DNA of 64,000 bases, taken from assembly GCA_040285745.1 (NCBI GenBank), contig JAUFOR010000008.1, positions 1,674,001-1,738,000 on the forward strand, in the 5' to 3' direction. The notes below the pieces were generated by a model. The model saw only the letters and a list, made by a program, of their open reading frames with translations. It searched no databases and was not told the DNA's origin. The position numbers and the translations under genes are program-made. Of this stretch, positions 17,951-51,248 are shown piece after piece (the first letter of the stretch is position 1; every line of letters begins with the position of its first letter). This stretch comes from Barthelona sp. PCE. Lineage: Eukaryota.

Positions 17951-18886
17951 ATGTATTTAACGGATATCAGACTGCAGGCCATAAAGTCTAAACTGAATAT
18001 TGAATCCGACTTTGATCTACTGTTGTGTTCACGCGAACAACTCATAGACGTTGCTTCATCAGTATGTCAGAATCCCCGTGAGCTTGTGGAGGAACTCCTC
18101 GTTGGCTTTGCACCCGTTGAAACCGAAATACCATATAACCGTGAACTTTTCCAACGCGAACTGGTGTGTTCAGCAACAATCAACAACACCCTCGAATTTA
18201 TAGAGCTGCTACAGCCAGGTACAATCACTGAGATATACGGAGAGGCAGGCAGCGGTAAAACGCAAGTGATATGTCAGTCACTGTGTTACACCATTCTCAG
18301 ACAACGATCGTCTGCAGTCTATTTATGTAATGAGTCGACTGCATACACCAAGCGTCTGCAGGGGATGCTGAAGGGGCTGCAGTCTCGTGGGATAATACAA
18401 AACTCATTACTAAAGTATCAGCAAGTTCTGCACTATACAGACGAAACCGAAGACGCCCTGAATTATTTCTGGTGGTTTGTGTTTAGAGAGCTGCCTCAAA
18501 TACTTAAACGAGAGAGTATATGCTTTCTTGCCATTGATTCAATTTTTGGTTTCTTTCAGGAATTAACCGAACAAAGAGATTATATTCAGCGTTCTGAGAA
18601 GTTAAACCATGCATTTGCTGAGTTGAAGAAGCTTGCTGTGATACATAGATTCCCAATTGTTGTCGCTAACCACGTTGTTACAAACTTCAAAACTAACACG
18701 CTTGTGCCTGCCTTGGGTTTCAACTACAGATACCTCCCTGATGCACAGGTTGAACTGACTGTCACTGATGTTGAAAAGGGGCGTCTACGGTCCATATATA
18801 ATAGGAGATTTGGAATTTTAGATCCAAATATAAGATACACTTTACTAATCGATACGCATGCAGTCAGTATCGTTGCTCCTTGTTAG
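17951..18886 (+). CDS. RAD51 paralog (XRCC3-like)
   Basis: ITEIYGEAGSGKTQ Walker A, LAIDSI Walker B, VVANHV, PALG; probable start at ATG 17951. Confidence 0.8.
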   Translation: MYLTDIRLQAIKSKLNIESDFDLLLCSREQLIDVASSVCQNPRELVEELLVGFAPVETEIPYNRELFQRELVCSATINNTLEFIELLQPGTITEIYGEAGSGKTQVICQSLCYTILRQRSSAVYLCNESTAYTKRLQGMLKGLQSRGIIQNSLLKYQQVLHYTDETEDALNYFWWFVFRELPQILKRESICFLAIDSIFGFFQELTEQRDYIQRSEKLNHAFAELKKLAVIHRFPIVVANHVVTNFKTNTLVPALGFNYRYLPDAQVELTVTDVEKGRLRSIYNRRFGILDPNIRYTLLIDTHAVSIVAPC

Positions 18887-26678: not shown

Positions 26679-29600
26679 ATGACTTCAGAATTAATCAGTA
26701 GGCTCGCAGCAGAGTCAATTGAAGCTAGATTAGAGGTTCTTGAGCAAATCCTCTCTACAACATCTGTTTTCGAGGTCACAGATACGATCCCTGCTGAGGC
26801 TGCCATACTTTGTGAGATGTTGCCTTCAACTAAGGACGAAATGGTATTCGAAAACGGTAGTGTTTCAGGGCTTTCAATTCCACCTCATTTAAAAAAACTT
26901 TCTCTTAAATTCATAACTATCCAAGACTGGGGCCAATTCGCGCACTCCATTGCGGACTCAACCCTCGAGGAGTTGCACATGGTCTCTTGTGGAATAGATT
27001 CAACCGCAATGTCAGTTCTTGCATCAAATCTCCCCTACTCTCTTTGTGTATTGAACCTGAGCTTCAATCCTCTGGGCAATACCGGCCTTGGACTTCTCCT
27101 GGTCCGTCTCGACGTACTGCCAAGCATGAGAGAGTTGGTGTTAAGAGCTTGTTCCATCGATATTGATGGAGCAAGGTTGTTGTCCAGGCAGCGCATCTCT
27201 TTTGAGAAGCTGGACCTCTCAGGAAACTCAATCACCTCTTTTGCATCCGATTTCTTCCATTTCCCCTCACTTCGAATTCTTTATTTGAGGAATTGTGGTC
27301 TAGATGATAACTTCCTCGGTGATTATATCGCTGAGGGAACGTTAAAGGAGCTCTATATTGGCGCGAACTCGTTCACGACCAGAGCCACTGAAGATTTCCT
27401 GAGAAGAGTTCATCCGCAACTCCAAGTCCTCGACATATGGACGAGCACTGTTCCTGTGGGGTCGTTTGACATAAGCCAGTTTATTAGGACATGGCAGGGG
27501 CATCAACTATGGCTGCGCCTCCCTGTGCTCTCTGAACCGGACGCTGTTGCCCTGAAACAGTCAGTTAGTGTGAACTCCACTTTGCTTGAGTGGCACTGCT
27601 GTGAGAACTCCCGAGAGATCAATGCAGACGTGTCCGAGGCTATCCAGTCAATGCTGCGTCTCAACGCCTTTTTGAAGAAGAAGAATGATAATCCTAGAAA
27701 ACTTTTCGAATCTATGAGTACAGAAGGGATCGATACAATAACCGATAAGTTCACCCACCTCATGAATCAGAAGATGGATGGGTCTCACACAAATGAGATT
27801 ACAGTACCACTCGACGAACAGATAACACGTCAAGAAGTCGAGGAGCGATTCACTGGAATGTGTGAGAGTCTCGAGGCTGTTTTGGCGCTTAAGACTGGTA
27901 TTGACGACCGCGTTGAGCTCATCGCCATGACCACAGACAAGAATACCACGGAGATCCGTGGTTTAGTTGATGGATCCATCCAGCGCCAAACTGTGCTTGA
28001 GCACAACATCCAGCGCGAATCTGAGCGCATCACCAACGTCACTGATGAACTGGGCGTTGTTGGTGACCGTGCGTCCGGTAACAGTAAGGTAATTGAAATA
28101 GTGCAGAAGGATATCACCAAACTCTTTGATGAGACAATGCAGACGATAGACGCCATCGGTTTGGTGGAAGAGACGCTCCTGGACAAGCAGGGGGATCTGC
28201 TGAAGCACCTCTCTGGTGTGAGCGATAATCTTGAGAGTAAGATGAGTAGTAACCAACAGAAGTTGGATCGGGCACGCGACGAACTCATGCTGTGTGTCAC
28301 AACACTCAAGGAAGATGTCGATGACCGCGTAGCGGCTGTGCATAAGGAGCTTGAAAACCACACAATGGCAATCATGGAGCGCGTCAAGAGCACTGATCTT
28401 GAAAGAATAGTTGATGGTATTAAGCACGTTGTCAATGACGAGTTGGATTCACTGCGAGGTTTGGTCGAAAGCCACAACGAGGACATTATCACCTTTGAGA
28501 AGAGAATTGTTGCTTTTGCTAACGATATAGAAAGCCTAAAGGAGTATATGCACGCTGATATAACTGCTATTAACAACACCATCAGCACTCTCGCGTCCAA
28601 AGAAGCCCTGCAGGCGGTGGACGACGATGTCCGTGCGGTGAAGATGGGTATCGAGCAGCTGAAGGAACAAGTGAACGCTTCTCTGAAGCAGCTCCAGTTC
28701 CAATTGTCATCTGATATTAGCGATGTTGTTGCTTCTGTCTCTGTTGTTAATGAGCGCCTGGACGCCATTGAGGTATGGCGCGGCGAGCACAGCGATTTGA
28801 TTGCAGCAAACGCTGATTCCATTGTTGCTGTCGAAACTGCTCTAAATGAACACGTTGCAATCAACCAACAAGAGTTTGAAGCGGTGGCTGAGAAGTTTTC
28901 TGAAGCTGCAGATGCGGCAACAGCGGCCCAAACTATGCTCAACACACGCATCAACAGCGTTGCTGACGAGGCAGCACTCAATCTCTCAATTCTTGATGAA
29001 GTTGTTGAGAGTAATAAGGTGCAAATTAACAACGTCAACACCAAGGTGGAGGAGAGGGTCAGTCAGCTGCGCACCGCCATGGACAGCACTGTTGAGATGT
29101 TAAAGTCAGAGAACGAAGACGTTCTTCGTACAGTTAGCGAAAACGTTGACGATGTTAAGGCTCGCATTGAAACAGAGCACTTGTATATCGATGACACACG
29201 CGAAGAACTGGTGCTGATGATCCAAAAAGACATTGAGGATGTTGAGACTGCCATGAACATGAATATCAACGTTTTAGCCGAAGGAATTGAGTCGTTCAAA
29301 GAGACCATGCTCAAGACGACTGATGAAACTGTAAGTATGGTTGAGAGCAACACGTTACTTATCGAAGATGTGCGCGAGGAGACAAACGAGTTTGTATTGA
29401 AGCACAACGGTGAGCATGACTCTTTGAATGCACAAGTTGCCTGCGCAAATGCGCACATCACTGATGTTGTTCAGGGACTGAGTACAGCTGAACACGATAT
29501 TGCTGAGCACAGTGATGCAATTTTGGTGATCAACAAAGAGCTCACGAGTGTAGCCCAGGCTACAGAGATTGTTGATAATTCTGTTAAAGATTTAGCAGAG

Positions 29601-31109
29601 TATCTGCAACAGTCATTCAATACTGTTAAGGATGATGTTGATACGCTGGACGAGAGCATGAACGCTTTGGGAACAGAATTGAGATCAAGCTTTGAAGGTG
29701 TTCGCACTGACATTGATATTGTTGACAATGCCGTTAACGAGCTCACTGAGTTTACCAAGCAGTCATTCACGACTGTTAAGGATGATGTTGATACTCTAGA
29801 TGAAAGCATGAACGCTTTGGGAACAGAATTGAGATCAAGCTTTGAAGGTGTTCGCACTGACATTGATATTGTTGACAATGCCGTTAACGAGCTGACCAAG
29901 CACACCCAGGAATCATTTAACAAGGTTGTTGCGGATGTTGAACTGCTTGACAAGACGGTTACTGATATGTTTACAAAATCCCAGGCCAGCTTTGATGCTG
30001 TACAAAATGATGTCAACATTCTGGACAAATCTGTATGTGATATGAATACGAAGGTTAAAGAATCATTCGACAACGTTGAAGAGCATGTCACTGTTCTCGA
30101 TACGAATGTGAGCGAGTTTTTTGAGAAAACACAAGCCTCATTCGATATTGTACAAAGTGATGTTACCAAGTTGGACTGTGCAGTACAGGAAACATTTGAG
30201 CATGTGCAGACATCATTTGACACCGTCCGAAAGGATGTGGATGCCGTAACTGAGCACAGTGCATCCGTTGAGGCAGAACAAATATTGCTTAAACAACATG
30301 TTAATGAGCTTGAAGGAAAGATGCTATCCAGTGAGGAGTTTGAAAAGAATGTCGAACTGTTACTGGGTCAGTTTGATAGCAAGCTGATGGAGGCCGATTT
30401 TGTCAAATCCAGCGATTTCAATAATGCAGTTAATGCCATTCATCCTGAAATTGAGGAGATTAAATCTGAGTTCGATGCCATCCGTACCGTAATATCAGAG
30501 CACGCTGAAGTTATCCCAGCAGTTAGCGGCGCCACAGAGGATGTGAAGGCATTAAGAATTGCGTTTGAAGCTCTTTCAGGAAAGGTTGACGTTCTATCCC
30601 ACAAATTCGATCGATTTGATGGTATTTCAACCACACTTGAGGAGCTCTCCGAGGCAGTAAGCAGTCTTACATCCAGAATCGACTACCAAGACACCATCAT
30701 CAAGAATCTTGAGGACGGTTTTGAAGTTGTAGCCGACCTGTCGACAAACGTAAAGCGCGTTGACGAAGCAGTTATTACTATTACCGAGGAAGTCTTCAGT
30801 GAAGACCGTAAAAAGATGCACAAGGAGCAAATGACAGCGTTCGATGTATTCTCAAAGAAATATGACATTGAGCTCAGGGAAATGCACGCTGCTATCGCTG
30901 CCAACGTGTCCACGAGCAGCGAGGTTCTTTCAAATCTGTCAAAGAAGATTAGTGTTCTTCACAACGACATGAAGATCGTCCACAAGCGTATCAGACGCTT
31001 TGAAAACACTGTATTGACACACGAAGCTCATGCTCTACATGAACTTGAGGATATCCTTGAGCACAAACCTCCTCAACTAGGTACCCCTCGTCTGCCGAAT
31101 CCAAACTAA
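26679..31109 (+). CDS. RI-like LRR protein with long acidic coiled-coil/helical repeats
   Basis: LxxLxLxxNxL/C repeats (LNLSFNPLGNTG; LDLSGNSI; LYLRNCGL), then about 1100 aa of heptad-rich sequence. Confidence 0.75.
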   Translation: MTSELISRLAAESIEARLEVLEQILSTTSVFEVTDTIPAEAAILCEMLPSTKDEMVFENGSVSGLSIPPHLKKLSLKFITIQDWGQFAHSIADSTLEELHMVSCGIDSTAMSVLASNLPYSLCVLNLSFNPLGNTGLGLLLVRLDVLPSMRELVLRACSIDIDGARLLSRQRISFEKLDLSGNSITSFASDFFHFPSLRILYLRNCGLDDNFLGDYIAEGTLKELYIGANSFTTRATEDFLRRVHPQLQVLDIWTSTVPVGSFDISQFIRTWQGHQLWLRLPVLSEPDAVALKQSVSVNSTLLEWHCCENSREINADVSEAIQSMLRLNAFLKKKNDNPRKLFESMSTEGIDTITDKFTHLMNQKMDGSHTNEITVPLDEQITRQEVEERFTGMCESLEAVLALKTGIDDRVELIAMTTDKNTTEIRGLVDGSIQRQTVLEHNIQRESERITNVTDELGVVGDRASGNSKVIEIVQKDITKLFDETMQTIDAIGLVEETLLDKQGDLLKHLSGVSDNLESKMSSNQQKLDRARDELMLCVTTLKEDVDDRVAAVHKELENHTMAIMERVKSTDLERIVDGIKHVVNDELDSLRGLVESHNEDIITFEKRIVAFANDIESLKEYMHADITAINNTISTLASKEALQAVDDDVRAVKMGIEQLKEQVNASLKQLQFQLSSDISDVVASVSVVNERLDAIEVWRGEHSDLIAANADSIVAVETALNEHVAINQQEFEAVAEKFSEAADAATAAQTMLNTRINSVADEAALNLSILDEVVESNKVQINNVNTKVEERVSQLRTAMDSTVEMLKSENEDVLRTVSENVDDVKARIETEHLYIDDTREELVLMIQKDIEDVETAMNMNINVLAEGIESFKETMLKTTDETVSMVESNTLLIEDVREETNEFVLKHNGEHDSLNAQVACANAHITDVVQGLSTAEHDIAEHSDAILVINKELTSVAQATEIVDNSVKDLAEYLQQSFNTVKDDVDTLDESMNALGTELRSSFEGVRTDIDIVDNAVNELTEFTKQSFTTVKDDVDTLDESMNALGTELRSSFEGVRTDIDIVDNAVNELTKHTQESFNKVVADVELLDKTVTDMFTKSQASFDAVQNDVNILDKSVCDMNTKVKESFDNVEEHVTVLDTNVSEFFEKTQASFDIVQSDVTKLDCAVQETFEHVQTSFDTVRKDVDAVTEHSASVEAEQILLKQHVNELEGKMLSSEEFEKNVELLLGQFDSKLMEADFVKSSDFNNAVNAIHPEIEEIKSEFDAIRTVISEHAEVIPAVSGATEDVKALRIAFEALSGKVDVLSHKFDRFDGISTTLEELSEAVSSLTSRIDYQDTIIKNLEDGFEVVADLSTNVKRVDEAVITITEEVFSEDRKKMHKEQMTAFDVFSKKYDIELREMHAAIAANVSTSSEVLSNLSKKISVLHNDMKIVHKRIRRFENTVLTHEAHALHELEDILEHKPPQLGTPRLPNPN
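29610..29893 (+). repeat. 150-nt (50-aa) recent tandem duplication within a 25-aa periodic array
   Basis: Near-identical copies start at 29610 and 29760 (QSF.TVKDDVDTLDESMNALGTELRSSFEGVRTDIDIVDNAVNELT). Confidence 0.9.
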
Positions 31110-31129: not shown

Positions 31130-34100
31130 TTACTCCTCGATGATCTCCATCTTTTCCAATTGGCGCTGATGCTTAAGTGTAAGTTGTCCTACTGCATGAT
31201 CGATAGAAAGCTGCTTAGACATTACTCTGCGCAGCAAGCGATCCCTCTCAGTCTTCAATGCCTCAATTTCCTCCTCTCTGTCCAAAACAAGACGCTCCTT
31301 TGCTGCTACACCGTCTCTCAGCTTTGAGATTCGATCTCTATGCTTCATGGACCGCTTCTGCCACCGCACACATCGCATCCAAAGTTTCATTGGATCAAGT
31401 GTGCTTGGATCTGGAACGTTTTCAATGTCAAAATCGTCATTCTTTGTGTTGTTATCGTTGACAAGGCGCTCAATTTGTTCAGTTTTCTCCTTGATCTCGA
31501 CCTTCAGCTTCTTGATGGTTTTTCGAAGAGAACTAATTCCGTTTGCACGCTTCTGTGCACGCTCAAGGTCACTCTCCTTCTGTCTGAGGTTACTTCTTAG
31601 TCGCATAACCTCATCATCGCTTACATTTGAAGTCGGTTCAGTACTATTTCTGAGCTTCCTGCGCAACTTCTTCACCTCTTTCTTCGCCTCAGACAAGCTA
31701 TCGCGGGCTGCAACAAGCTCGTCTGCCAGGTTTCCGTACTTATCCCGTGTTGTGCTGACAATGATTCCGAGATCTTCGTTCTCCTTTCGAATTCTACTGA
31801 GCTCTGCCTTCAATGTAGAAACGATGCCTGATTCACCAATAGAATCCAGCGCATCCTGGTTACTTGTTGTCCGCCTCAGTCTCAGTATCTCTGTATTCTT
31901 ATCTTGCATCTCTTCGTCCAACTCCTTAACTCTCTTTGCCAAATATGCTGTTCGCGCAATCTGTTCGCGCAGGGCTGTCCTAACAGAAGCGCTTATTTGT
32001 TGTCCTGGATCTGATGTCTGCCGCACTCTGTTACGCTCTTCAAGGCTTGTTATCTGACTCTCCAGCACTCTCTTCTCCTGGTTACGCTCTTCCAGCAGTC
32101 GCTCGAACTTATCTCGCAGAGTCTGTGCCATTGCCTTGTATCCTTCAATGGTTCTTTGGGTTTCGAGCTGCTCAATACGCTCTTTGTCCTCGTTCTTGTC
32201 TGCCTCGAAGCGCTCTTCAACCGCCATTGGTGCACGGACACTATTGACGTAAGATTGATCCTTTATGGCAGTGTACTGAGACATTAGCTCAGAAAACTGC
32301 TGATTGCGCGAGATAAGTGCCTCTCTCAGAGTACGCACCTCCTCCTCGAGGCCTGCGCTGCTACTGAACAGCTTCTGGTACTTAGCCTTCAGGTCGATCA
32401 GTTCGATACCGGTGTTGAGCCAATTCTTTATCTCATCGACGATCTCAATGCTGCCGCTCTCGTTGAGCACAGCAATTTGACCATGTGCGCTAAATCGTGA
32501 TATCTGTGACTCAATCTCGCCGACAAGCTTTCGTAGCTCTAAATGAGCCGACCCAAAGTCGTCCTTCTCGACTAGCGTATCGATGCGCCTGAGTGTCTCG
32601 CTCACTGTAACTGTGTATGTGTCTCTGTCTTGTAACAGGCTCAAAAGAAGGTTGAGGATAGAACGCACACGATCATTGTCTGAGTCACGCTTGCCCTTCA
32701 AATAGCTCACGTTCCGCTCGAGATCCTGAATCTGAACAGTGCACATTGCAAGTGCGCTCTTGTCCTGTGGGATATCGTCAACGTTGAATTCAACGCGATC
32801 AACAGCGCCGTCCAAAATCTCCAGTTGGCCTGTTAACTGGCCATTTCTGCGAGTGAACGACTCATTTAACTCCTCCAGGCGTGTAAACGTAACCTCCTGC
32901 TCCTGGTCCATCATTGAAACAAGCACCTTACGCAGAGAAACATAACGCTCCTCCCATGACATCAGCATCGTATCACTAAAGGAAACGCGTTGCCTGACAA
33001 AGTCCTCCAGAGTTATGACAAGGCGCCTCAGTGTCGTAAAGCGATCAGCCATCACCTTGATCAAAGCATCTCTATCCTGCAACATGAATCTGAACTCGGC
33101 CGCCTTGCCTTTGGCATCTGCGAACGCGACTTCATCGTCAGTCGCCCCGGAAACGTATGCAGCAACCTGTTCTGTTAAGGACTGGACTTCAGCCTTTGAA
33201 GTAACCAGCTCCTCCTTGAGAGCAACAACACGCTGCTCGTTCTTCTCGTCGAGATCAATGATGATCTCGCCAGTGTCCGGCACAAAGCGTATTGTACTGA
33301 TATTCTCCAGCTCCGAAGCGCGGTGGCTGAAGACCTGGGTAAAGAAGTTGACTGCAAGGGTATGGTTCTGGCGATTGAGAGCATCATACTTATCCTGAAG
33401 GACTTCATACTTACCCTTCAGCAAAGTGTTCTCCTTGCGCACAGTTAGATAGCGCTGCATGATCTTGAGCATCGTCGGATCATCAAGTTTAAATCCTGAC
33501 AGAAGTGATGAACTCACGACGCTCGTTTTCATGTTATTCTTCAACTGGGATCTGAGCGCTGCATTGTCAGCTTCTAAGCGCTCCATAGCTCCATCGGAGG
33601 CTGCTTCGACCGCACTTATAACAATTGAATTATCTCTCCTCAACGTATTGAGAACATGGTCTTTCTGGTGTTGTGAGCACACCGCTAGCAGTTTGCTGTC
33701 CAGTTTGGCCACGCCGCGTTGGCTTACAAAGAAAAGCGCAGTAGCAACCATGTGTAAATCCTTAGTAACGTTTCTGAGTTTTGTTGTGAGTGTATAGTCC
33801 TCGTTACTGATCTTATCGGTGTCTATCTCACCGACAAACGCTTCTCCGCCAATCATACCAATAATCTCGGTCTCTGACAACCCTGCCAGAACACCAACCT
33901 CAAAGAACTTCTTGTGTAAGAACCCAAGTCGTGCGCGAAGTTTGGAAGACATCTCCCTAAACTCCGTGTTTTCCTGTACAAGTCTAAAGTTCTCGTACTC
34001 AATACCCTCCTTGACAAGGCCCTCAATCCGAAGTTCCTTTGGTACAATAATATTTTGGGCTTGCAACCAATAATAAAGCTCGCCCAGTTTATCATACAAC

Positions 34101-35296
34101 CAGTTAAGCTCATGCCTGGTTTCGTTCAGCTTCTCACTCCGCAACCTGAGCTGGTTACTTCTTTCCAACAAATCGTGAGCCAATCTCTCCTTGTCGATAT
34201 CACCTGCCAACAAATCGTTAAGTTCCTTCTCAAGGACCTTGTTGTCCTTCTCCCGTTCGACAAACGCAAGCTCCGCTGACTTGAGCTCTTGTTGCATCAC
34301 TTCAATCTTTGATTCACGTTGCAGAAGCTCCTCCTCGAGATTAGTGATCTTTGTGAGGTGCTGCTTGACATCCGCTCGTTCTGAAGCGATTGCCAGCTGC
34401 TTCTTAAGCCGTGCGTTCTCAACCTGAACCTGCTTATGGTCTATTTCAAGCGCGTCGAACGAATATTCATAACGCTCAGCCAATGATCGAGCAGCATCCA
34501 GTTCAAGTAAACCGAACTTCATGGAGCTGATCTGCTCGTCCTTCTCATAGATTGTGTCACGTAAAGCTTTTATGCTATCATCTTTTGCTCGCATTATCGC
34601 ATCAAACTCCTCCTCCTTTTTTTGTATTTCCAACTCAGGGTTCAGAGTCTCCAGCTCCTCGTCGCGTTTGTGTAGCCTATTGCGGAGAACAACAAGCTTT
34701 TCATTCAAGTGCTGAAGCAACTGCCTGCTCTCAATAAGTTCTGTTTCTAATCGCAAGCTCTCCTCTTCTTTTTCTATTGCCAGCTCGCGTAAACTGGTGA
34801 TCTCTCCTTTTTGATTGTCAAGAACACGGTCGTTCTGATCATATCTATTCTCAAGCTTATTGATCTCCTTCATTTTGCGATTCATTTTGAGATTCATCTG
34901 CTTGATGGTCTCTGCTTGCTCCTGTAGCTTCTTGGCAAGCAGTGCCTTCTCATTCTCGGAGCTAGCTTGTGCTTTCTTCAGACTGCGCATCTGTGCTTGA
35001 AGTTGTCGGGTCTGTGCAGACTCTTGAGTTGCAACCTTCGTTAGCTGCTCCTTCAATGTGAGCGTTTCGTTCGTCCGCGTGCGTAGTTCGTCCTGACTAC
35101 GGTCTAATTTCTGCTTGAGTTGCAGAACTTCGTCTTGCAGGTCTTCTATCCGCCTTGAGTGCTGCATGCGGTCGTGAGTAGCGCCCGATACACCACCTAC
35201 TGGTGTGTAACTGCTTCCAACACCCATAACTTCTCCATCAAGGTTGTTTAAATCCTCTTCCGAGTAGTAATCGGAATACTCGTCTTCTGGATCCAT
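31130..35296 (-). CDS. Long coiled-coil protein, CEP290-like (ciliary transition zone)
   Basis: About 1390 aa of coiled coil from MDPEDEY; segments such as VRWQKRSMKHRDRISKLRD resemble CEP290. Confidence 0.5.
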   Translation of the reverse strand: MDPEDEYSDYYSEEDLNNLDGEVMGVGSSYTPVGGVSGATHDRMQHSRRIEDLQDEVLQLKQKLDRSQDELRTRTNETLTLKEQLTKVATQESAQTRQLQAQMRSLKKAQASSENEKALLAKKLQEQAETIKQMNLKMNRKMKEINKLENRYDQNDRVLDNQKGEITSLRELAIEKEEESLRLETELIESRQLLQHLNEKLVVLRNRLHKRDEELETLNPELEIQKKEEEFDAIMRAKDDSIKALRDTIYEKDEQISSMKFGLLELDAARSLAERYEYSFDALEIDHKQVQVENARLKKQLAIASERADVKQHLTKITNLEEELLQRESKIEVMQQELKSAELAFVEREKDNKVLEKELNDLLAGDIDKERLAHDLLERSNQLRLRSEKLNETRHELNWLYDKLGELYYWLQAQNIIVPKELRIEGLVKEGIEYENFRLVQENTEFREMSSKLRARLGFLHKKFFEVGVLAGLSETEIIGMIGGEAFVGEIDTDKISNEDYTLTTKLRNVTKDLHMVATALFFVSQRGVAKLDSKLLAVCSQHQKDHVLNTLRRDNSIVISAVEAASDGAMERLEADNAALRSQLKNNMKTSVVSSSLLSGFKLDDPTMLKIMQRYLTVRKENTLLKGKYEVLQDKYDALNRQNHTLAVNFFTQVFSHRASELENISTIRFVPDTGEIIIDLDEKNEQRVVALKEELVTSKAEVQSLTEQVAAYVSGATDDEVAFADAKGKAAEFRFMLQDRDALIKVMADRFTTLRRLVITLEDFVRQRVSFSDTMLMSWEERYVSLRKVLVSMMDQEQEVTFTRLEELNESFTRRNGQLTGQLEILDGAVDRVEFNVDDIPQDKSALAMCTVQIQDLERNVSYLKGKRDSDNDRVRSILNLLLSLLQDRDTYTVTVSETLRRIDTLVEKDDFGSAHLELRKLVGEIESQISRFSAHGQIAVLNESGSIEIVDEIKNWLNTGIELIDLKAKYQKLFSSSAGLEEEVRTLREALISRNQQFSELMSQYTAIKDQSYVNSVRAPMAVEERFEADKNEDKERIEQLETQRTIEGYKAMAQTLRDKFERLLEERNQEKRVLESQITSLEERNRVRQTSDPGQQISASVRTALREQIARTAYLAKRVKELDEEMQDKNTEILRLRRTTSNQDALDSIGESGIVSTLKAELSRIRKENEDLGIIVSTTRDKYGNLADELVAARDSLSEAKKEVKKLRRKLRNSTEPTSNVSDDEVMRLRSNLRQKESDLERAQKRANGISSLRKTIKKLKVEIKEKTEQIERLVNDNNTKNDDFDIENVPDPSTLDPMKLWMRCVRWQKRSMKHRDRISKLRDGVAAKERLVLDREEEIEALKTERDRLLRRVMSKQLSIDHAVGQLTLKHQRQLEKMEIIEE

Positions 35297-35612
35297 TTTT
35301 GCCCCCTGTGTGTTCTTTAAAAAAGGTGGGGTGCTTTGAAACGGAAAAAAGTTGAATAACACTGCATTTTTTATTGTTTTTGAAAATTAGTATCGTTGCA
35401 CTGGGAACCGTTGCAAATATAAACTCTGCTAATAAAAGCATTGTCCTGAAATATGCTGTACAAACGACTGCGCGAAAACTGCAGGCAGCACTTCAGCTCA
35501 TTCTGTTTTGTTTGTGTCGTTCTATGAATCGTGTCCTGTGTGGTGAATTGATTTCTTAACCTGAAATGCTGTGAATGATGACCTGCAAGAAATTGCTTCT
35601 TTAACACAATAT

Positions 35613-41920: not shown

Positions 41921-44657
41921 ATGAACTATCGTCACTGTATGTACCATTTGACTATTCAAACTTATGTAGACACAGTAATACTGACTTTTAGGTTACAACT
42001 TTGCTACTTCCAACGATCTTCTTGAGCTGCCCGTAAAGCAGATCAAGGATGAGATTGGTGGCAAGGGTTTCGGTCTTTGTTTACTCACATCCAAGCTTGG
42101 TATCCCCACACCTTCCGGTTACGTCCTTTCTATGCGTCTCTGTGAGGAGTACAAGAAGAACGGCTTCAAGTACCCTGAGGGTCTCAAGGAGGAGATGCTT
42201 GTTGAGCTCGAGAAGCTCGAGAAGCAGACTGGTCAGAAGATTGCTCCCGCTAACGCTGATGAGCCCATCCTTCTTCTTTCTGCTCGTTCAGGTTCTTCTA
42301 TCTCCATGCCTGGTATGATGGATACCATCCTTAACCTTAACCTCACTGATGAGAGCGTTGAGATTCTTGCTGCTCAGTCCAACCGTCGTTTCGCATTGGA
42401 TTGTTACAGAAGACTCATCCACATGTTTGGTTCCACCGTCTACGGTCTTGAGCACCTCGAGTTCATCCACGTTCTCGATGCCCTTAAGAAGTCTAACGGC
42501 ATCGTCAACGATGTTGATCTCACTGAAGCTCACCTTGAGGAGCTCATTGCTACCTACAAGCAGATCATCCTTGAGAAGGTCGGCAAGCCCTTCCCCCAGG
42601 ATCCTTATCAGCAGATCTTCGAGGCTACCGAGGCTGTTTGGAGATCCTTCTACGGTGAGTCTGCCATTACCTACCGTGTCATGAACAAGATTCCTCACAA
42701 TATTGGTACCGCCGTCAACATCCAGAAGATGGCTTTCGGTAACATCAACAACGATTCCGGAACTGGTGTCGCTTTCACTCGTGATCCCGCTGATGGTACC
42801 AAGATTTACTACGGTGAATACCTCATCAACGCCCAGGGTGAAGATGTCGTCTCCGGTGCCCGTACCCCCAACAAGATCGCCGCTCTCAAGGAGCAGATGC
42901 CTGAGGTCTACCAGCAATTGACTGATACCTTCGACAAGCTCGAGGCTCACTTCAAGGATGTCTGTGATATCGAGTTCACCATCGAGAACAAGAAGCTCTA
43001 CCTTCTTCAGACCCGTATTGGTAAGCGTACCGCCGCTGCTGCCATCAAGATTGCTTGCGATTTCGTCCGTGAGGGTGTCATTACCCCCGAGGATGCTGTC
43101 CTTCGTATCTCCCCCGATCAGATCGAGCAACTCCTCCTTCCTCAGCTCTGCCCTGAAGCTAAGAAGAATGCTGAGATCGTTACCTCTGGCCTCAACGCCT
43201 CCCCTGGTGCTGGTGTCGGTCAAGCCGTCTTCACCTCTCAGCGTGCTGTCGAGCTTAAGGAGCAAGGTGTCAAGACCATCCTTATCCGTCTCGAAACCTC
43301 CCCTGAGGATATCAAGGGTATGGGTGCTTCCGAGGCTATCGTCACCGCTCGTGGTGGTCGTACCTCCCACGCTGCCGTTGTTGCCCGTGGTATGGGTAAG
43401 CCTTGTGTTTCTGGTTGTGAAGGCCTCATCATTAATGAAGAGGAGAAGTACTTCGAGAACCCCGAAGGTGTTCGTGTCAACGAAGGTGATGTCATCTCCG
43501 TCGATGGTACCGATGGTAACGTCTTCACTACCGCTGTCAAGACCGTTCCTCCCAAGATGGACGGTGACTTCGCCCAGATGATGGAGTGGATCAAGGAGAA
43601 CGCCACTGAGGTTGAGCTCCGTATGAACGCCGAGACTGAGCGTGATATCAGAAAGGGTATCGAGCTCTACAACCCCATTGGTATTGGTCTCCTCCGTACC
43701 GAGCATCAGTTCCTTACTCAACTCGATGTTATCCGTGCTTTCATTCTCGCCGAAACCGAGGAAGAGCGCAAGCTTGCTTGTGATGATCTTCTCGATGTTC
43801 AGATTGCTGATTTCACTGAGATCTTCCGTATCATGGGTGAGGATGGTGTCAAGCGTGCCTGTAACGTTCGTCTCATCGATCCTCCTCTTCATGAGTTCCT
43901 TCCCCACACTGAGGAAGAGAAGAAGCACACTGCTGAGGTCCTTGGTAAGACCTACGAGCAAGTCGAGGCCACATGTGTCCGTATGGAGGAAGTTAACCCT
44001 ATGATGGGTTTCCGTGGTTGTCGTATTTCATGCGTCTTCCCTGAGATGGCTGAGCTTCAGGCCCGTGCCATTATCACCGCCGCTATCACTGTTGCTAAGG
44101 AGGGTCTCCCTGTCAAGCCAGAGATCATGATCCCCTTCGTTATGTTCGTTTCCGAGTTCGAGCGTCTTTCTAAGATTATTCGTTCTGTTGCTGATGAGCT
44201 TATTGCTGAGTCCGGTATCGAGCTTAAGTATCAGGTTGGTGCTATGTTCGAGGTTGTCCGTTGCGCCCTTATCACTGAAAAGTTGGTCAAGGCCGGTTGC
44301 GAATATTTCTCACTTGGTACTAACGATTTGACTCAATCTACCATGCTTCTTTCTCGTGATGATTATTCCAAGTTCTTCGGTCTCTACCAGGAGAAGGAGT
44401 TCATTGAGTTCGATCCCTTCCAAGATTTGGATATTGAGGGTGTTGGTGAAATCATCAAGATTGGTGCTCGCGGTGCTCGTAAGGTTGATCCTAACATCAA
44501 GATTGGTGGCTGTGGTGAACAATTCGGTCGTCTCGGTGCTTGTAGATTCGCCGCAAAGATCGGTATGAGATACTCATCCGTTTCTCCCATGCGTATTCCT
44601 GCTACCCTTACTGCTATCGCTCACGCCTCAATTGAGAAGAAGCGCGGCCAGCTCTAA
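41921..44657 (+). CDS. PPDK: Pyruvate, phosphate dikinase; exons 41921-41936 and 41992-44657
   Basis: IGGKG, ARSG..SMPGMMDT, QGEDVVSG.RTP, GGRTSHAAV (phospho-His), GIGLLRTEH, EVNPMMGFRGCR, GTNDLTQ, CGE. Confidence 0.97.
41937..41991 (+). other. Spliceosomal intron, 55 nt
   Basis: GTATGT...TACTGACTTTTAG; removal gives MNYRHCYNFA.. in frame with the GGKG motif. Confidence 0.92.
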
Positions 44658-46470: not shown

Positions 46471-48423
46471 ATGCCCAGACGATTGCATCGTGAAGTTATA
46501 GCGTCAGGGTTACTGGCAGGGCAGTTTGTTGATTTCTATCATGACTTTTTTTATTGTGCTAAAGCAGAACCGCAGAGTGCTGTATTTGGCCCAGGGATAC
46601 GGGACACTCCTAAATTCTACATCATTCCTGAAGCGTGTGTTAAGTGGGATATATCCAAAGCTGCATTGGTTGCTCCAGTGCATAGTGCCGAATTAAATGA
46701 TAGCGCATATCTGTGTTTAACCCATATTACCAAGAATAACAAAGAGAAAAGCTTTACATTTGTCCATAAAGAGTCAGGAGAAGTTAGGAAACCAGCTTAT
46801 GATATTTTGAAGGATAACGTTGAATACGGATTCGTATCAATTAATAGCGCCATCGTCCAGAGGTACTCAAGATCAGAGGAGGAGGCTGCAGCAGAGATGA
46901 TAGTTTGGGATGATCATGGAATCGAAAGATCACGTGAAGAGCTTCCGTTTGTTCATAAAAAGGGACAAATTCATATTCGTGGAGATTCTGTTGTTTTTAG
47001 AGATAAACTTACATCCGTCATGTGGATGGACATGAGTACAAAGTCTTTTTCAGAATCATATTTCGGAAGTTTCATTGATGTTATAAATTTGGCAAATGCT
47101 TTTGTGATTGCAACATCCAAAACGCTACTTTTCGTCGTGGAAAACAAAGTGTTTGACTTTGGAGAACTGTTAAATATTGGTAGACCGGATGTACAGGGAA
47201 TATACATAGAGACTCTCGAGTTGAATCAGTATAGTGCCACCGGAATCATCTGGCTGATGACTAAGTTCGGTAATATGCGTGCTGAATATGAAGAGGGATC
47301 AATAGTGTCAATTCATAGAGGTGCAGGTCCTGAGGATATATATGCAAAGCGAAGATATGTGTTGGATCCAGATATTCCGTTCAGTTGCCCGTTTGAATGT
47401 TTTTCAATAGACGAACGGGGCCGTCACAGCTTGAGGGCTGTTCGTGGTGAGGATGTATCCCTTTTTGTACCCACAAAGAATATGTTTAGTGCTGGTCATC
47501 ATGTTTTTTTTGATCTTAAAGGTGAATACGGTTATCCAAGGCGGAGTTTGTTACTTTCCCTGAACATGCGAGACTGCATCGTGCGTGCCCAGTCGATATT
47601 TGAAGCAAGAGTGGAAAATGTGACTGACAGTGATGTTATTGTTAGTCAGCATAACTCTACATATATTCATTGCATCCAGTCAGACGGGACTCTAACGAAG
47701 CGGGTAAGGATCAAGGGTTGTTATTCGGGCCGGTCTCATAAAGGTGAGTTAATTTGTGTTGACAGGGAAGAATGGGATTTTTCTTCGCCATTAAAAATGT
47801 ACGTAGATGGAGAGGAATTTTCTTTTCCAACCGAAATGATGTTTTTAATCAGCAATCCCAAGGTCCTGTATTCATCGGATTCACAGAAGATATTCGGGAA
47901 TTCAGTGATAGATTATATTATTCAGGAAAATTGTTTTAAAAAAGCGAAATTGGTCGCAAACGAGCGATTCTGGCCCATTATGTCAAAGACAGAAGACGAA
48001 AACGGCGATGTTGTATTCTTTTGTTGCGACAATTTAGCAAAAAAGTGGTTTGTGGCTGATACTGGAGGATGGCATATCCCTGCCCGTGAAGACTGGGGCA
48101 GACCAATTATGTGGCTCGATGAAAAGCATGTTTTATTCAGAGGAGGTGTTGTTGAATTCGATGGACATTTGATATATAGAGTAGTTGTTTTGTTTGAACA
48201 ATGGTTTCCACAGTACATTTTAAAGGAAAACGTGAGTGCGCAGGAAAATGGTGTGTGGATGGTGTATGGCTTTGAAGTAGATCGATTTTTATGTTGGACG
48301 ATTAATGTTGAACATGCTTCTTATGTTTATAGTGAGACGCTTCTCATTGATTTTTTGTCTCATGCGCGCTTTGGGACACTCGATGGAAATGATTGGAACA
48401 AGCGTGATCTCAGTTTGAGATAA
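46471..48423 (+). CDS. Hypothetical beta-rich protein (possible divergent beta-propeller)
   Basis: 650-aa ORF with short aromatic beta-strand-like segments; no family recognised. Confidence 0.65.
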   Translation: MPRRLHREVIASGLLAGQFVDFYHDFFYCAKAEPQSAVFGPGIRDTPKFYIIPEACVKWDISKAALVAPVHSAELNDSAYLCLTHITKNNKEKSFTFVHKESGEVRKPAYDILKDNVEYGFVSINSAIVQRYSRSEEEAAAEMIVWDDHGIERSREELPFVHKKGQIHIRGDSVVFRDKLTSVMWMDMSTKSFSESYFGSFIDVINLANAFVIATSKTLLFVVENKVFDFGELLNIGRPDVQGIYIETLELNQYSATGIIWLMTKFGNMRAEYEEGSIVSIHRGAGPEDIYAKRRYVLDPDIPFSCPFECFSIDERGRHSLRAVRGEDVSLFVPTKNMFSAGHHVFFDLKGEYGYPRRSLLLSLNMRDCIVRAQSIFEARVENVTDSDVIVSQHNSTYIHCIQSDGTLTKRVRIKGCYSGRSHKGELICVDREEWDFSSPLKMYVDGEEFSFPTEMMFLISNPKVLYSSDSQKIFGNSVIDYIIQENCFKKAKLVANERFWPIMSKTEDENGDVVFFCCDNLAKKWFVADTGGWHIPAREDWGRPIMWLDEKHVLFRGGVVEFDGHLIYRVVVLFEQWFPQYILKENVSAQENGVWMVYGFEVDRFLCWTINVEHASYVYSETLLIDFLSHARFGTLDGNDWNKRDLSLR

Positions 48424-48587: not shown

Positions 48588-50780
48588 ATGCAGTTTGATT
48601 TTGCCAAAGCAATTCCTGAAACAGCAACGGAAGATAGTTACACAGACTCAGATAGTTATCTTTTTTGCGATCCTACGCCTTTTTCATTTTCCATACAGGA
48701 AGACGACATAAACAGATTCAGAAGGCATTCAATATCGGAGAACGGACCGGATTTGTTTCTTCCTGAGGGTCCAATTGGACCCAGAATTAACGGGCTTGGT
48801 TTCTGCGATTCACCCAATCTTCAAGATGGATATCAATCCGACAACGAGGTCGAATCCGAGGTCGAAGAGGATTTAATTGATGATAAAGATGAAAGTTCTC
48901 CTCAACAATTTGAAGAAGCTGGGAAGCAAAGTTCCTTTATTTATGGATCAAGGATTGATGTTGAAGAAGACAAGCATCATGAGTTTAAAGCAGTTCAAAA
49001 CACACGAAAGTTACGAGCCACAGTTTCTAAACTCGCCAATCATTATGTTTGTGCGTTTTTGAATGGTGATGGAGGAAAAATCTATTTCGGTGTTGAGGAT
49101 GATGGTAATATTTTAGGAGTTCCACTCTCAATCAAGCAGCGTGATGACGTGCGTCTTGCTATTGATGGCGAGATTAACAGATTCTTACCTCAGGTTGATC
49201 CATTTTTGTACACCACCGAATTTGTTCCAGTTATTCGTCACAACCCCAAATTACAGACATTTGTGGTTGTGATCACCGTGCGGAAGGGCACAGCGCCCAT
49301 CTATATGACGAACTCGTTCGGTGGGGGTTCGGCATACATAAAAAGAGATGGAGGCATCAAGAAAGCAACGCAAGATTTTATCTCCAGTCGCATTCGGTTT
49401 GGAAGGTCGCTGCCTTACAGCCACCTGTTGCTGGATGGGAAAACCTTTGATTGCTTTGGGCGAGAGCGAGAAACACATGAGGTTCTGGAGTTTCTTGAGC
49501 AAAGCAGGACACGGGTTAAACTGGTTACTATTACTGGCCTTCCCTTTATTGGTAAGACGTTCTTCGCCCATCACGTATGCGGAACGCTCAAGAAGGAATT
49601 TGGAACAAAGAAACTTGCCATCAATATGAAAGGAGCAGCGGCTGAGTACAGATCATCGCATGATGCTAAGAAGTCGATTTTACGCGGGCTCCAGATCCGT
49701 AATGAGGCCAAGTTTGACCCATCTTTCATGGACGATGATGGGAACATCGACTTTTTGTATAACTCAATTTTCGATGATGGAACAACTGTTCTTGTCATTG
49801 AAAACTGCTCGAGAGAGCATCTGATCCAAGATATGTTACCCAATGACATTAAGGGAAGGGCAGTAATCATTGTAACAAGCAGACGTCGAGTTGATCCTCG
49901 TTTCCCACGAGTAGATGTGCACAATCTCGTGTTAGAGCCCCTTCCACCGGCTGCAAGCACGCGTCTGTTCAGATCAATAGCGCCACGTGTTAATTCAAGT
50001 CAGGCGGTCAAGTTTACTCGGTTGTTGGGCGGTCTTCCGGCAGCTATAGTATCACTAGCAAGTCTGATAAACCGCAAGCAGGGTATTCCCATCGATTTCT
50101 TCCTGGAGCAGCTACAGGAGTCGACAAAGAGCAAGATCGATCTCGCTCTACCCTCCGAAATTCGGTCATCGTTAGAGATTCTACCCGACACCATAATCCA
50201 GGCTCTCAGGCTCGTAAGTGTCTTCCCCGCGTCGTTTACTGCATCCTTCTTTTTCGACATGTATCACATGCTTCCGGAAGAGTGGAAGATCAGAGACGAA
50301 GAGGGCCAAATGGTAAAACCATACTTTTTGTTGGGTGATTTGGTTGAGACCAATCTTCTTCAGCACCACGCGCCCACATCACGCTATATCCCTCACGAAC
50401 TACTGAGGGATTATGGTTTGAGCACGATCAATCCAAGAACGCTCAGTGTAATGAAAGTTGCGTTTGTCAAAGTTTTCAGTGATTATATCAGTGGGTATCT
50501 TAAAAAGAAGAAAATCAGCGGCATCATCCACGCTGATTCCACCAATTTAGAGTATGTATTTAAGCTTGCCAAGGAGATTAACCATTTCGATTTGGAAGGC
50601 TTAGTTGATCTCTCTCAGATGCAAAACATTCGAAATTCAGTTGAGAAACTCGCTAACGGACTCGTAATGCTGGGCAAGCACATTGTTCCTGAAGAAATAT
50701 TATCAATAATCACTGATTTTTCTAAAGTTGAAGAGGAGGAAGACGGTGAGAGTTCAGATTTTTTTGAGGTGGATCTGTAA
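48588..50780 (+). CDS. Schlafen/AlbA_2 nuclease fused to NB-ARC (STAND) NTPase
   Basis: EEDKHHEFK and AFLNGDGGKIYFGVEDDG (Schlafen); FGRERE, GLPFIGKT, VLVIEN, IVTSR, LEPL, GGLPAAI, PHELLR (NB-ARC). Confidence 0.88.
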   Translation: MQFDFAKAIPETATEDSYTDSDSYLFCDPTPFSFSIQEDDINRFRRHSISENGPDLFLPEGPIGPRINGLGFCDSPNLQDGYQSDNEVESEVEEDLIDDKDESSPQQFEEAGKQSSFIYGSRIDVEEDKHHEFKAVQNTRKLRATVSKLANHYVCAFLNGDGGKIYFGVEDDGNILGVPLSIKQRDDVRLAIDGEINRFLPQVDPFLYTTEFVPVIRHNPKLQTFVVVITVRKGTAPIYMTNSFGGGSAYIKRDGGIKKATQDFISSRIRFGRSLPYSHLLLDGKTFDCFGRERETHEVLEFLEQSRTRVKLVTITGLPFIGKTFFAHHVCGTLKKEFGTKKLAINMKGAAAEYRSSHDAKKSILRGLQIRNEAKFDPSFMDDDGNIDFLYNSIFDDGTTVLVIENCSREHLIQDMLPNDIKGRAVIIVTSRRRVDPRFPRVDVHNLVLEPLPPAASTRLFRSIAPRVNSSQAVKFTRLLGGLPAAIVSLASLINRKQGIPIDFFLEQLQESTKSKIDLALPSEIRSSLEILPDTIIQALRLVSVFPASFTASFFFDMYHMLPEEWKIRDEEGQMVKPYFLLGDLVETNLLQHHAPTSRYIPHELLRDYGLSTINPRTLSVMKVAFVKVFSDYISGYLKKKKISGIIHADSTNLEYVFKLAKEINHFDLEGLVDLSQMQNIRNSVEKLANGLVMLGKHIVPEEILSIITDFSKVEEEEDGESSDFFEVDL

Positions 50781-50792
50781 ATAACTACACGT

Positions 50793-51248
50793 TTATTCTG
50801 TGATAGAATCATAGAAACTTTTGATGCAACGAGTGATTTGTTCATAAACAAGATCAAAACCACGTTTCCCACCATAATATGGATCAGGTACTTCAGATCC
50901 TGGTTCTTCAGGATCGTAATCACCAAGAAGTACTAGTTGCGCCTGACTACGCGTCCTCCCCCGGATCCTCTTTGCGTTATTGATGTTGGAACGATCCATA
51001 CAGACAATAAAATCGAATGTCTCAAAATCACTCTTTTGAAGCTGTTTGGCAGAATGTGAATTGTCCAATCCATGCTTTGCGAGCACATCCGCGCTTCTGT
51101 GATCCATATTTTCTCCAGAATGGTAAGCAGCGGTTCCGCAGGAATCAATAACCCAATCTAGGTTTCTTTCATCACAAATGTATTGACCCACAGACCTGGC
51201 AATGGGGGATCGGCAAATGTTGCCCAAACAAACGTACATAATTCGCAT
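50793..51248 (-). CDS. Low-molecular-weight protein-tyrosine phosphatase
   Basis: VCLGNICRSP P-loop, DSCGT, VPDPYYG. Confidence 0.96.
   Translation of the reverse strand: MRIMYVCLGNICRSPIARSVGQYICDERNLDWVIDSCGTAAYHSGENMDHRSADVLAKHGLDNSHSAKQLQKSDFETFDFIVCMDRSNINNAKRIRGRTRSQAQLVLLGDYDPEEPGSEVPDPYYGGKRGFDLVYEQITRCIKSFYDSITE

Follow-up and report, generated by a model that had tools for sequence, protein, structure and literature searches.

Does the product of a single gene in the protist Barthelona sp. PCE place a nuclease under a nucleotide-dependent switch, and would such a molecule serve immunity? The gene lies at 48588..50780 on the forward strand of the window, by which we mean the whole 64,000-nucleotide stretch that was analysed (positions 1,674,001 to 1,738,000 of contig JAUFOR010000008.1, assembly GCA_040285745.1). 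Its product, here called P0001, carries a Schlafen/AlbA_2 domain followed by an NB-ARC-type NOD, an arrangement that a first-pass annotation had read as a candidate NLR-like immune effector. Schlafen/AlbA_2 tRNases and STAND switches are counted among the immune modules common to bacteria and animals, and the protists that lie between are almost unexplored.

Schlafen nucleases cut tRNA through an E-x4-E-x-K motif, and in bacteria they are phage-defence effectors fused to sensor modules (PMC13056530). The AlbA_2 domain of SAMD9 is a tRNA-Phe anticodon nuclease (PMC10246899), and the SAMD9 NOD is reported to clamp the protein in a closed, ATP-bound, autoinhibited state from which activation requires intermolecular contacts (PMC13600222). 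Killing by Avs9 requires the acid of its AlbA_2 site (PMC12680541).

Using profile searches, structure prediction and a phylogeny of the NOD, we find that P0001 joins a single Schlafen lobe with an intact catalytic motif to an NBD-HD1-WHD-HD2 module and ends there, with no repeat sensor, and that its domains and motifs are conserved in a family of fused proteins. We consider it probable, by analogy with known systems, that P0001 is a tRNA/rRNA nuclease under the control of a nucleotide-gated, CED-4-like NB-ARC switch; a part in immunity or cell suicide is plausible.

A single Schlafen lobe with an intact catalytic motif

The nuclease domain of P0001 occupies residues 113-275 (48924..49412, +) and scores 60.1 bits against Pfam SLFN_AlbA_2 (PF04326; cut-off 25.3, E=4e-16, residues 127-260). 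A phmmer search of the PDB finds rat Schlafen 5yd0 (E=5e-7), and SLFN12 and SLFN14 too. Alignment to the EFK of 5yd0 places the catalytic motif E127-x4-E132-x-K134 (48966..48989, +) within EEDKHHEFK at residues 126-134, which bears out the Schlafen domain with an intact Glu pair, E127/E132, seen in the first-pass annotation; the motif is defined as E-x4-(E/D)-x-K in section 6 of PMC13056530. Two extra active-site acids, D171 and D172, lie in GVEDDG at residues 168-173 (49089..49106, +), aligned to FGVDDE of the rat protein, and FLNGDGG is found at residues 157-163.

These residues are kept across the family. Among 31 fused members, from which all conservation counts in this work are taken, Pfam finds the Schlafen domain in every one (31/31); E127 is conserved in 28, E132 in 29 (with Asp in one more), K134 in 28, D171 in 25 and D172 in 27. 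The nuclease is also the best-kept part of the protein relative to six distant relatives, at 42% identity as against 25% for the NBD, 27% for HD1, 30% for the WHD and 15% for HD2. In a close set of four sequences, identity reaches 90% in the nuclease and NBD, 75-78% in HD1, WHD and HD2, and 60% in the N-terminal tail.

An AlphaFold2 model of P0001, built from the 80-sequence alignment A2, has a mean predicted local distance difference test (pLDDT) score of 82.3 and a predicted template modelling (pTM) score of 0.70; residues 1-112 are disordered and nearly all of 113-720 score above 85. Foldseek covers the N-terminal domain of this model with SLFN12, SLFN11, SLFN5, SLFN13 and SLFN14. The best nuclease fold matches in VIA alignments are the rat SAMD9 tRNase 9o0d (Z 15.9, 171 residues aligned, model 110-284) and human SAMD9 with DNA (7ksp, Z 15.5), followed by SLFN5 (Z 14.5) and SLFN13 (Z 13.8, root-mean-square deviation (rmsd) 2.1), with SLFN5, SLFN11 and SLFN13 together ranging from 13.7 to 14.5. 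Solved Schlafens match the model over residues 110-272 only, and the single Pfam stretch corresponds to one lobe. Judged from its motif, its conservation and this predicted fold, the Schlafen domain of P0001 is most likely a single-lobe endoribonuclease with a complete active site, whose substrate would be tRNA or rRNA, in line with SLFN11/13/14, SAMD9 and bacterial Schlafens.

An NB-ARC-type NOD in the same polypeptide

A linker of only about 10 residues leads from the nuclease to the NOD. The nucleotide-binding domain (NBD) spans approximately residues 286-452 (49443..49943, +), as delimited by secondary structure and by VIA alignments that begin at 275-288. It contains GRE at 291-293, Walker A GLPFIGKT at 317-324 (49536..49559, +), Walker B VLVIEN at 401-406 (49788..49805, +), the sensor-1 arginine strand VTSRR at 429-433 (49872..49886, +; VTSR 429-432) and LEPL at 449-452. 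The helical domain HD1 (ARC1) follows at approximately residues 453-522 (49944..50153, +), with helices at 454-520 and GGLP at 481-484. The winged-helix domain (WHD, ARC2), residues 523-612 (50154..50423, +), is made of helices and a beta-hairpin at 591-602 and includes RYIPHELLRD, in which PHELLR (602-607) puts His603 at the MHD position; a tentative equivalence to the plant MHD is drawn from the motif and from its place in the secondary structure. All ten motifs of the first-pass annotation lie where it had placed them.

Several searches assign this module to the NB-ARC type. NCBIfam models match residues 288-524 (HaaT 3e-8, AfsR 9e-7, FxSxx-TPR 2.5e-5), all far under their full-length cut-offs, as expected for a single shared domain. 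With phmmer against the PDB, P0001 matches the AfsR NOD 8k60 (E=7e-6, residues 304-514), with VLVIEN opposite LVLLDN. A profile of the fused family (A3), searched against solved structures, matches the AfsR NOD at 7e-51, Apaf-1 at 7e-21, NRC4 at 2e-19, Roq1 at 4e-17, ZAR1 at 8e-13 and CED-4 at 2e-7; among Schlafens it finds SLFN11 at 2e-13 and SAMD9 at 2e-6, the latter over the AlbA_2 stretch only. Furthermore, Pfam NB-ARC is found in 23/31 fused relatives (E<=0.001) and lies above the gathering score in five of the first six homologues.

Residues G317, G322, K323, T430 and P484 are present in 31/31 members, R292 in 30, G291 in 29 and R432 in 27. The complete NB-ARC module of STAND class that had been proposed is thus upheld: GRE, Walker A, the sensor-1 Arg and GxP are all there, and profile and fold agree. 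Two of its motifs need a different account. The Glu-Asn Walker B, in place of Asp-Asp or Asp-Asn, had been noted as an oddity of P0001; it is real, but Glu405 is present in 28/31 members and Asn406 in 25/31, so that it represents a family signature and not decay. The canonical hhhhDD/DE pattern is not followed, and the acidic first position is kept. The PHELLR had been called MHD-like, and His603 is indeed present in P0001, but the MHD column of the family holds His in only two members, with Asn in 15, Cys in three and Leu in three; at the next position Asp stands in 20 members and Glu in four. The PHE of P0001 (His603-Glu604) is unusual against a family consensus of Q-N-D.

Predicted fold of the NOD and the C-terminal end

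A Foldseek search of the PDB with the model returned NRC3 first (E=1.2e-12), then NRC4, Sr35, Roq1 and ZAR1, and next Apaf-1 and CED-4. In VIA alignments Z is 24.8 for the NRC4 resistosome (327 aligned residues at rmsd 3.7), 24.1 for CED-4 (335 aligned residues, pairing model 278-660 with chain 120-543), 21.0 for active Apaf-1 5juy (392 aligned residues, model 279-720 with chain 116-539) and 18.8 for Dark 5jul (model 283-712 with chain 112-531). Overall, the predicted NBD-HD1-WHD fold matches resistosomes, CED-4, Apaf-1 and Dark with Z from 24.8 to 17, 320-390 residues aligned and rmsd 3.5-4.8. Fitted over the whole NOD, open assembled states give an rmsd of about 4, whereas resting states fit partially or with an rmsd of 16-21 (1z6t, 8y6p).

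The last domain of P0001 is a five-helix bundle at residues 613-720 (50424..50747, +) of the model. Since the Apaf-1 alignment runs to residue 720 and that of Dark to residue 712, helices 616-719 would correspond to the HD2 of the apoptosome proteins, given what we take to be the domain limits of Apaf-1. No repeats follow: an LRR, TPR or WD40 sensor was sought in P0001 with Pfam and in the model, and none was found. Only 118 residues, with five helices, remain after residue 612, close to the 125 or so that had been estimated, and this short C-terminus turns out to be the norm of the family.

Carriers and C-terminal forms of the family

A word-indexed search gave six relatives with 27-30% identity, all with a Schlafen domain, one of which, from Pelomyxa schiedti, bears the NCBI name 'SARP family'. 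An exhaustive search of 1.84 billion cluster representatives returned 2952 matches at E<=1e-3, of which 362 reach E<=1e-10 and 34 reach E<=1e-30. A scan of 162 proteins, which are the best-scoring matches and no census, with family hidden Markov models (HMMs) detected the Schlafen part in 146, the NOD in 67 and both in 52.

Names were looked up for 30 proteins. Carriers of the fusion are, among Amoebozoa, Cavostelium, Mastigella, Mastigamoeba and Pelomyxa (the last with two copies, P0020 and P0002), among Metamonada, Dysnectes, Paratrimastix and Blattamonas, and, elsewhere, Thecamonas and the ichthyosporean Creolimax; the nearest Sphaeroforma protein matches the NOD part only. The fusion is also present in 'Eukaryota sp. 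GEM-RC1' and 'Eukaryota sp. TZLM1-RC', of which we take the former to be Skoliomonas strain GEMRC and the latter, presumably, S. litria. In databases the members go under unspecific labels: 'hypothetical protein', 'SARP family' and 'putative nb-arc domain containing protein'. Barthelona is itself a metamonad, and Skoliomonas GEMRC and S. litria are given as its relatives in the main text of the genome paper on its clade.

Most fused relatives extend for only 95-200 residues beyond the WHD. TPR arrays are found in a few (P0021, P0026, P0028 and Thecamonas P0029) and LRRs in Blattamonas P0034, which has the NCBI name 'NLR family CARD'. The HMM of the C-terminal part of P0001 also matches the segment ahead of the TPRs in P0028 and P0026. 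In P0034 (1533 aa, from Blattamonas nauphoetae) and in the 1827-aa P0019, an N-terminal Schlafen domain precedes several hundred unassigned residues and a partial match to the family NOD, followed in P0034 by the LRRs. Both could be genuine Schlafen NLRs of three parts whose NBD is of another kind or has diverged.

Two further proteins have unusual architectures. P0031 (2337 aa) contains 19 separate SLFN_AlbA_2 matches, with 510 bits in total, and forms a tandem Schlafen-like array. P0010 (Paratrimastix pyriformis, 2478 aa) consists of a complete GCN2-like eIF2-alpha kinase (RWD, kinase and HisRS-like parts), a linker of about 30 residues and then Schlafen-NB-ARC. Either the fusion is genuine and links the family to uncharged-tRNA sensing, or the annotation has run two tandem genes together; the sequence at the junction does not discriminate between them.

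Prokaryotic relatives were sought by scanning 185,579 prokaryotic species genomes with patterns from A1; of 400 pattern matches, none was confirmed. A pattern scan of metagenome contigs for the P0028 locus gave 140 pattern matches and likewise no confirmed one, and the defence models of PADLOC-DB gave no family for P0001 at E<=1.

Phylogeny of the NOD

The NOD tree comprises 50 rows and is a quick IQ-TREE run (LG+C20) with SH-aLRT support only. Its outgroup does not form a single clade, and it contains several long branches, among them that of P0001 (1.92). Bacterial NB-ARC-TPR proteins fall outside the fused clade. A clade of 38 rows (support 97) contains proteins that all have a Schlafen domain, except P0077 and Sphaeroforma P0087. 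Within it, the TPR-bearing P0026 branches first, then P0021 together with Thecamonas (both with TPRs; 100), and then 35 short forms (84). The metagenomic Schlafen-NB-ARC-TPR protein P0028 groups with an Acidobacteriota protein (support 91). Subclades match taxonomy for Archamoebae (96), for Ichthyosporea (100) and for the two 'Eukaryota sp.' (Skoliomonas) genomes (100).

P0001 is unplaced in the free tree. When it is forced together with the two Skoliomonas genomes and P0041, a group picked on taxonomic grounds after the tree had been viewed, the log-likelihood is 11.2 above that of the free quick tree and the grouping is not rejected by the approximately unbiased test (p-AU 0.79). The simplest reading of this weakly resolved tree is that the ancestor would have been a bacterial-type Schlafen-NB-ARC-TPR protein which lost its TPRs, and that the short form would then have passed mainly vertically within protist groups.

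The gene and its surroundings

The P0001 gene is one ATG-started, intronless open reading frame (ORF) of 730 aa plus the stop, with in-frame stops present 5' of it, and the ORF had been delimited exactly in the first-pass annotation. Its first 112 residues (48588..48923, +) form an acidic, disordered tail with 23% Asp+Glu and pLDDT below 50 for residues 1-40 and 42-112; in alignment A1 the length of this tail ranges from about 0 to 430 aa among the relatives. The stop of the gene lies 12 bp from that of a convergent low-molecular-weight (LMW) phosphotyrosine phosphatase gene (50793..51248, -), the two stops spanning 50778..50795. This gap leaves scant space for separate 3' untranslated regions and indicates a compact genome.

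The ORF starts 165 bp 3' of a co-oriented ORF of 650 aa (46471..48423, +), for which neither a Pfam family nor, in the scored candidates out of 5.8 billion proteins, a homologue was found; sub-threshold beta-propeller-like hints from the Atlas accompany a poor model (pTM 0.34, TM at most 0.40). We considered this upstream ORF as a sensor acting in trans on P0001 and dropped it, as it is an orphan and the link is purely speculative.

The window as a whole is ordinary, densely packed eukaryotic nuclear DNA, in which the P0001 gene lacks obvious introns. The GC fraction at the gene is 0.42, and the window ranges from 0.34 to 0.52. Its genes include ENTH, Surp, kinesin, WD40, Rad51-like, NUDIX, DIRP and 2-hydroxyacid dehydrogenase genes, and further genes encode PPDK, an amino-acid transporter, an MFS protein, a pyridine-nucleotide disulphide oxidoreductase and a family-4 glycosyltransferase. 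No defence-island-like context was seen around the P0001 gene in the window, although eukaryotic gene order is not expected to show one. An Rfam scan of the whole window found no RNA family. Close to the gene, sigma-70 promoter patterns (5 against 5.1 expected) and terminator patterns (3 against 2.2) both number about what chance would give, and they are irrelevant for a eukaryote.

The PPDK gene (42132..44657, +) has its nearest relatives, beyond its own record, in Bacillota (Defluviitalea and others) at about 50% identity, which fits a bacterial-type PPDK; the database model has 893 aa as against 841 aa for the ORF from its first ATG, so that the real start lies further upstream. Two very long ORFs, of 2578 aa (18883..26619, -) and 1410 aa (31130..35362, -), have no Pfam family at E<=1e-4, and an ORF of 1476 aa between them (26679..31109) has LRR and coiled-coil-like matches only.

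Discussion

In the mechanism that we favour, the NB-ARC NOD (NBD-HD1-WHD-HD2) of P0001 would keep the Schlafen domain inactive. Nucleotide-dependent opening and self-association of the NOD would then free or pair the nuclease domains, and RNA cleavage would halt translation, so that the cell stops growing or dies. From better characterised proteins of similar build we infer that P0001 is an RNase and which RNA it would cut, that it would oligomerise, in which direction control would run, and that infection or stress would be the trigger. Since a repeat sensor is missing in P0001 and in most of its relatives, the trigger would have to act through the WHD/HD2 surface, or through a trans inhibitor or a separate sensor. 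For the helper-type protein or sensor in trans suggested in the first-pass annotation, the nearest precedent in architecture is CED-4. As P0001 ends after HD2 like CED-4, a brake or sensor acting in trans appears the most economical solution, with direct sensing by WHD/HD2 as the alternative. The Glu-Asn Walker B and the usual absence of the MHD His in the family hint at a NOD that may bind nucleotide and turn it over slowly. Slow turnover is a trait of CED-4, which is not known to carry repeats and is controlled in trans by CED-9.

Several observations weigh against a nucleotide-gated immune nuclease. Pfam NB-ARC gives no match to P0001 alone at E<=1 (the weak matches obtained are to AAA_16, E=0.004, and to nSTAND3, E=0.17), so the class assignment rests on the relatives, the family profile and the fold. 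Given the same departures at Walker B and MHD, the nucleotide cycle may differ from that of a canonical NB-ARC, with hydrolysis perhaps slow or absent, and the open, resistosome-like pose of the model is a property of the prediction rather than evidence of activity. There are AlbA_2 domains that bind nucleic acid but do not cut it, and human SLFN5 is not known to cleave tRNA. With regard to immunity, a hypervariable structured domain was looked for across the relatives and none stands out. The named genomes that were looked up carry one or two copies each, tblastn of the 64-kb window found no second copy of P0001 and hence no expansion, and the adjoining genes are housekeeping ones that give no pointer to immunity.

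Some of these points would suit a different role for the same molecule, namely that of a conserved regulator of RNA metabolism or stress with no part in immunity, acting for example by regulated tRNA cleavage in translational control. We judge this somewhat unlikely. The family does look like an old, low-copy orthologue group and not an expanding receptor repertoire, in that its subclades match taxonomy (96, 100 and 100), the grouping of P0001 with Skoliomonas is not rejected (p-AU 0.79), and neither a hypervariable domain nor anything but housekeeping neighbours was seen. The GCN2-like fusion of Paratrimastix P0010 would, if the gene model is real, tie the family to uncharged-tRNA sensing, but it may be the annotator's merge of neighbouring genes. 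In the literature surveyed, all functionally studied Schlafen/AlbA_2 nucleases serve defence or cell killing, and conflict systems are typically laid out as a STAND NOD with an N-terminal nuclease, both of which argue against a purely regulatory role.

An AlbA_2 domain that binds DNA or RNA without cutting, attached to a NOD working as in AfsR-type transcription regulators, is in our opinion quite improbable. By sequence the closest solved NOD is that of AfsR (profile 7e-51; NCBIfam 9e-7), the Pelomyxa homologues are named 'SARP family', and the AlbA_2 domain of SAMD9 was first described as DNA-binding and crystallised with DNA (7ksp, Z 15.5; PMC5445408). The intact and near-invariant E-x4-E-x-K and DD pair, however, would not be demanded by binding alone, and neither a SARP/BTA DNA-binding domain nor a helix-turn-helix (HTH) was found with Pfam and NCBIfam, the 'SARP' label evidently being due to NOD similarity alone. 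That the gene is a bacterial contaminant or a very recent horizontal acquisition, rather than native, is barely credible, and we reject it. The ORF is intronless, and the nearest named relatives with the NOD only are bacterial NB-ARC-TPR proteins from metagenome-assembled genomes (MAGs) of Anaerolineae and Acidobacteriota; but the gene lies in a contig of 2,170,504 bp among kinesin, ENTH, Surp, DIRP and WD40 genes, its GC is within the range of the window, it belongs to an all-eukaryote fused clade (SH-aLRT 97), and the prokaryotic pattern scan and PADLOC gave no confirmed relative.

The CED-4-like switch that we prefer can be extended to an ancient eukaryotic 'RNase apoptosome', an idea that we put forward as speculation and think unlikely to hold in full. 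A sensor-less CED-4-like scaffold, restrained by a partner acting in trans, would form a ring once set free, and its Schlafen tRNases would be switched on for programmed translational arrest or death. It would derive from a bacterial-type Schlafen-NB-ARC-TPR receptor with the TPRs lost, and its inheritance, reaching back beyond the divergence of Amorphea from Metamonada, would have been mostly vertical. It might have been kept in lineages that include anaerobes with reduced mitochondria, where the cytochrome-c/caspase route may be unavailable.

The combination of AlbA_2 with a STAND module is known from SAMD9/9L, Avs9 and bNACHT34, so the concept is not new; what is new in the P0001 family is the NB-ARC type, the range in protists and the sensor-less form. 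We found no description of a eukaryotic Schlafen-NB-ARC family in the literature searched, although similar fusions might appear in the supplementary tables of PMC12680541 and PMC13056530, the latter with 55 Schlafen architectures. In the genome paper on the clade of Barthelona, neither Schlafen nor NB-ARC nor NLR occurs in the main text. With about 700 aa and no introns, the family provides a compact model of a NOD that is armed with an enzyme and lacks a sensor domain, and some of its carriers can be grown. It might reveal how a NOD without repeats gets triggered, whether halting translation through tRNA cleavage is an ancient stress or defence route of eukaryotes, and whether protist NLR-like proteins go back to NB-ARC-TPR proteins of bacteria.

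Comparison with known systems

With the mammalian Schlafens SLFN11, SLFN12, SLFN13 and SLFN14, P0001 has in common the catalytic motif and the C-lobe fold. These proteins consist of two AlbA_2-like lobes and a linker, with a helicase-type NTPase in the long forms, whereas P0001 has one lobe and a STAND NOD; lacking the second lobe and the helicase, it falls outside the mammalian type. The first-pass annotation contrasted P0001 with SLFN11/13 only, which is incomplete in view of SAMD9/9L, Avs9 and bNACHT34. SAMD9/9L and Avs9 follow the same logic as P0001, an AlbA_2 tRNase under a STAND NOD. SAMD9/9L belong to another NOD lineage, and the P-loop of SAMD9 reads GG[TS] according to PMC5445408, where P0001 has GKT. 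The SIR2-like domain, SAMD9-type NTPase, TPR array and OB fold of SAMD9/9L and Avs9 are absent from P0001, as is SAM. The survey of SAMD9 is reported to have recovered no protozoan matches (PMC12680541).

Among bacterial proteins, the NB-ARC-TPR group that includes AfsR of Streptomyces has the closest NOD by sequence, with matches in Anaerolineae and Acidobacteriota at E of about 1e-14 to 1e-17, and the Asn of the AfsR Walker B, LVLLDN, is shared with P0001. These proteins carry TPR sensors and other N-terminal domains, in contrast to the Schlafen N-terminus and absent TPRs of P0001. bNACHT34 also has an N-terminal Schlafen RNase on a STAND protein, but its NOD is of the NACHT and not the NB-ARC type (Kibby et al. 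preprint). Bacterial Schlafens such as pSlfn, Cash and SLFN-pAgo are fused to varied sensing modules and cut tRNA on activation, the fusions in the main text of PMC13056530 including histidine kinase, HTH, Ig-like, DUF262 and others.

The best overall fold matches to the NOD of P0001 are plant CNLs and TNLs and helper NLRs (NRC2/3/4, ZAR1, Sr35 and Roq1). Plant NLRs have LRRs, a CC or TIR effector and Asp-Asp at Walker B, whereas P0001 has an RNase effector, Glu-Asn and no LRR, and the MHD consensus of its family is Q-N-D. The GLPL-like GGLP, the TSR and the HELLRD of P0001 presumably resemble plant NB-ARC motifs. Without a sensor, P0001 does not qualify as an NLR if the term is kept strictly for three-part proteins. 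In CED-4 and Apaf-1 an N-terminal CARD recruits a caspase, whereas P0001 has a Schlafen RNase in that place, Glu-Asn at Walker B and no known CED-9-like partner. It nevertheless shares with CED-4, Apaf-1 and Dark the same NBD-HD1-WHD-HD2 fold and, like CED-4, ends after HD2 without repeats.

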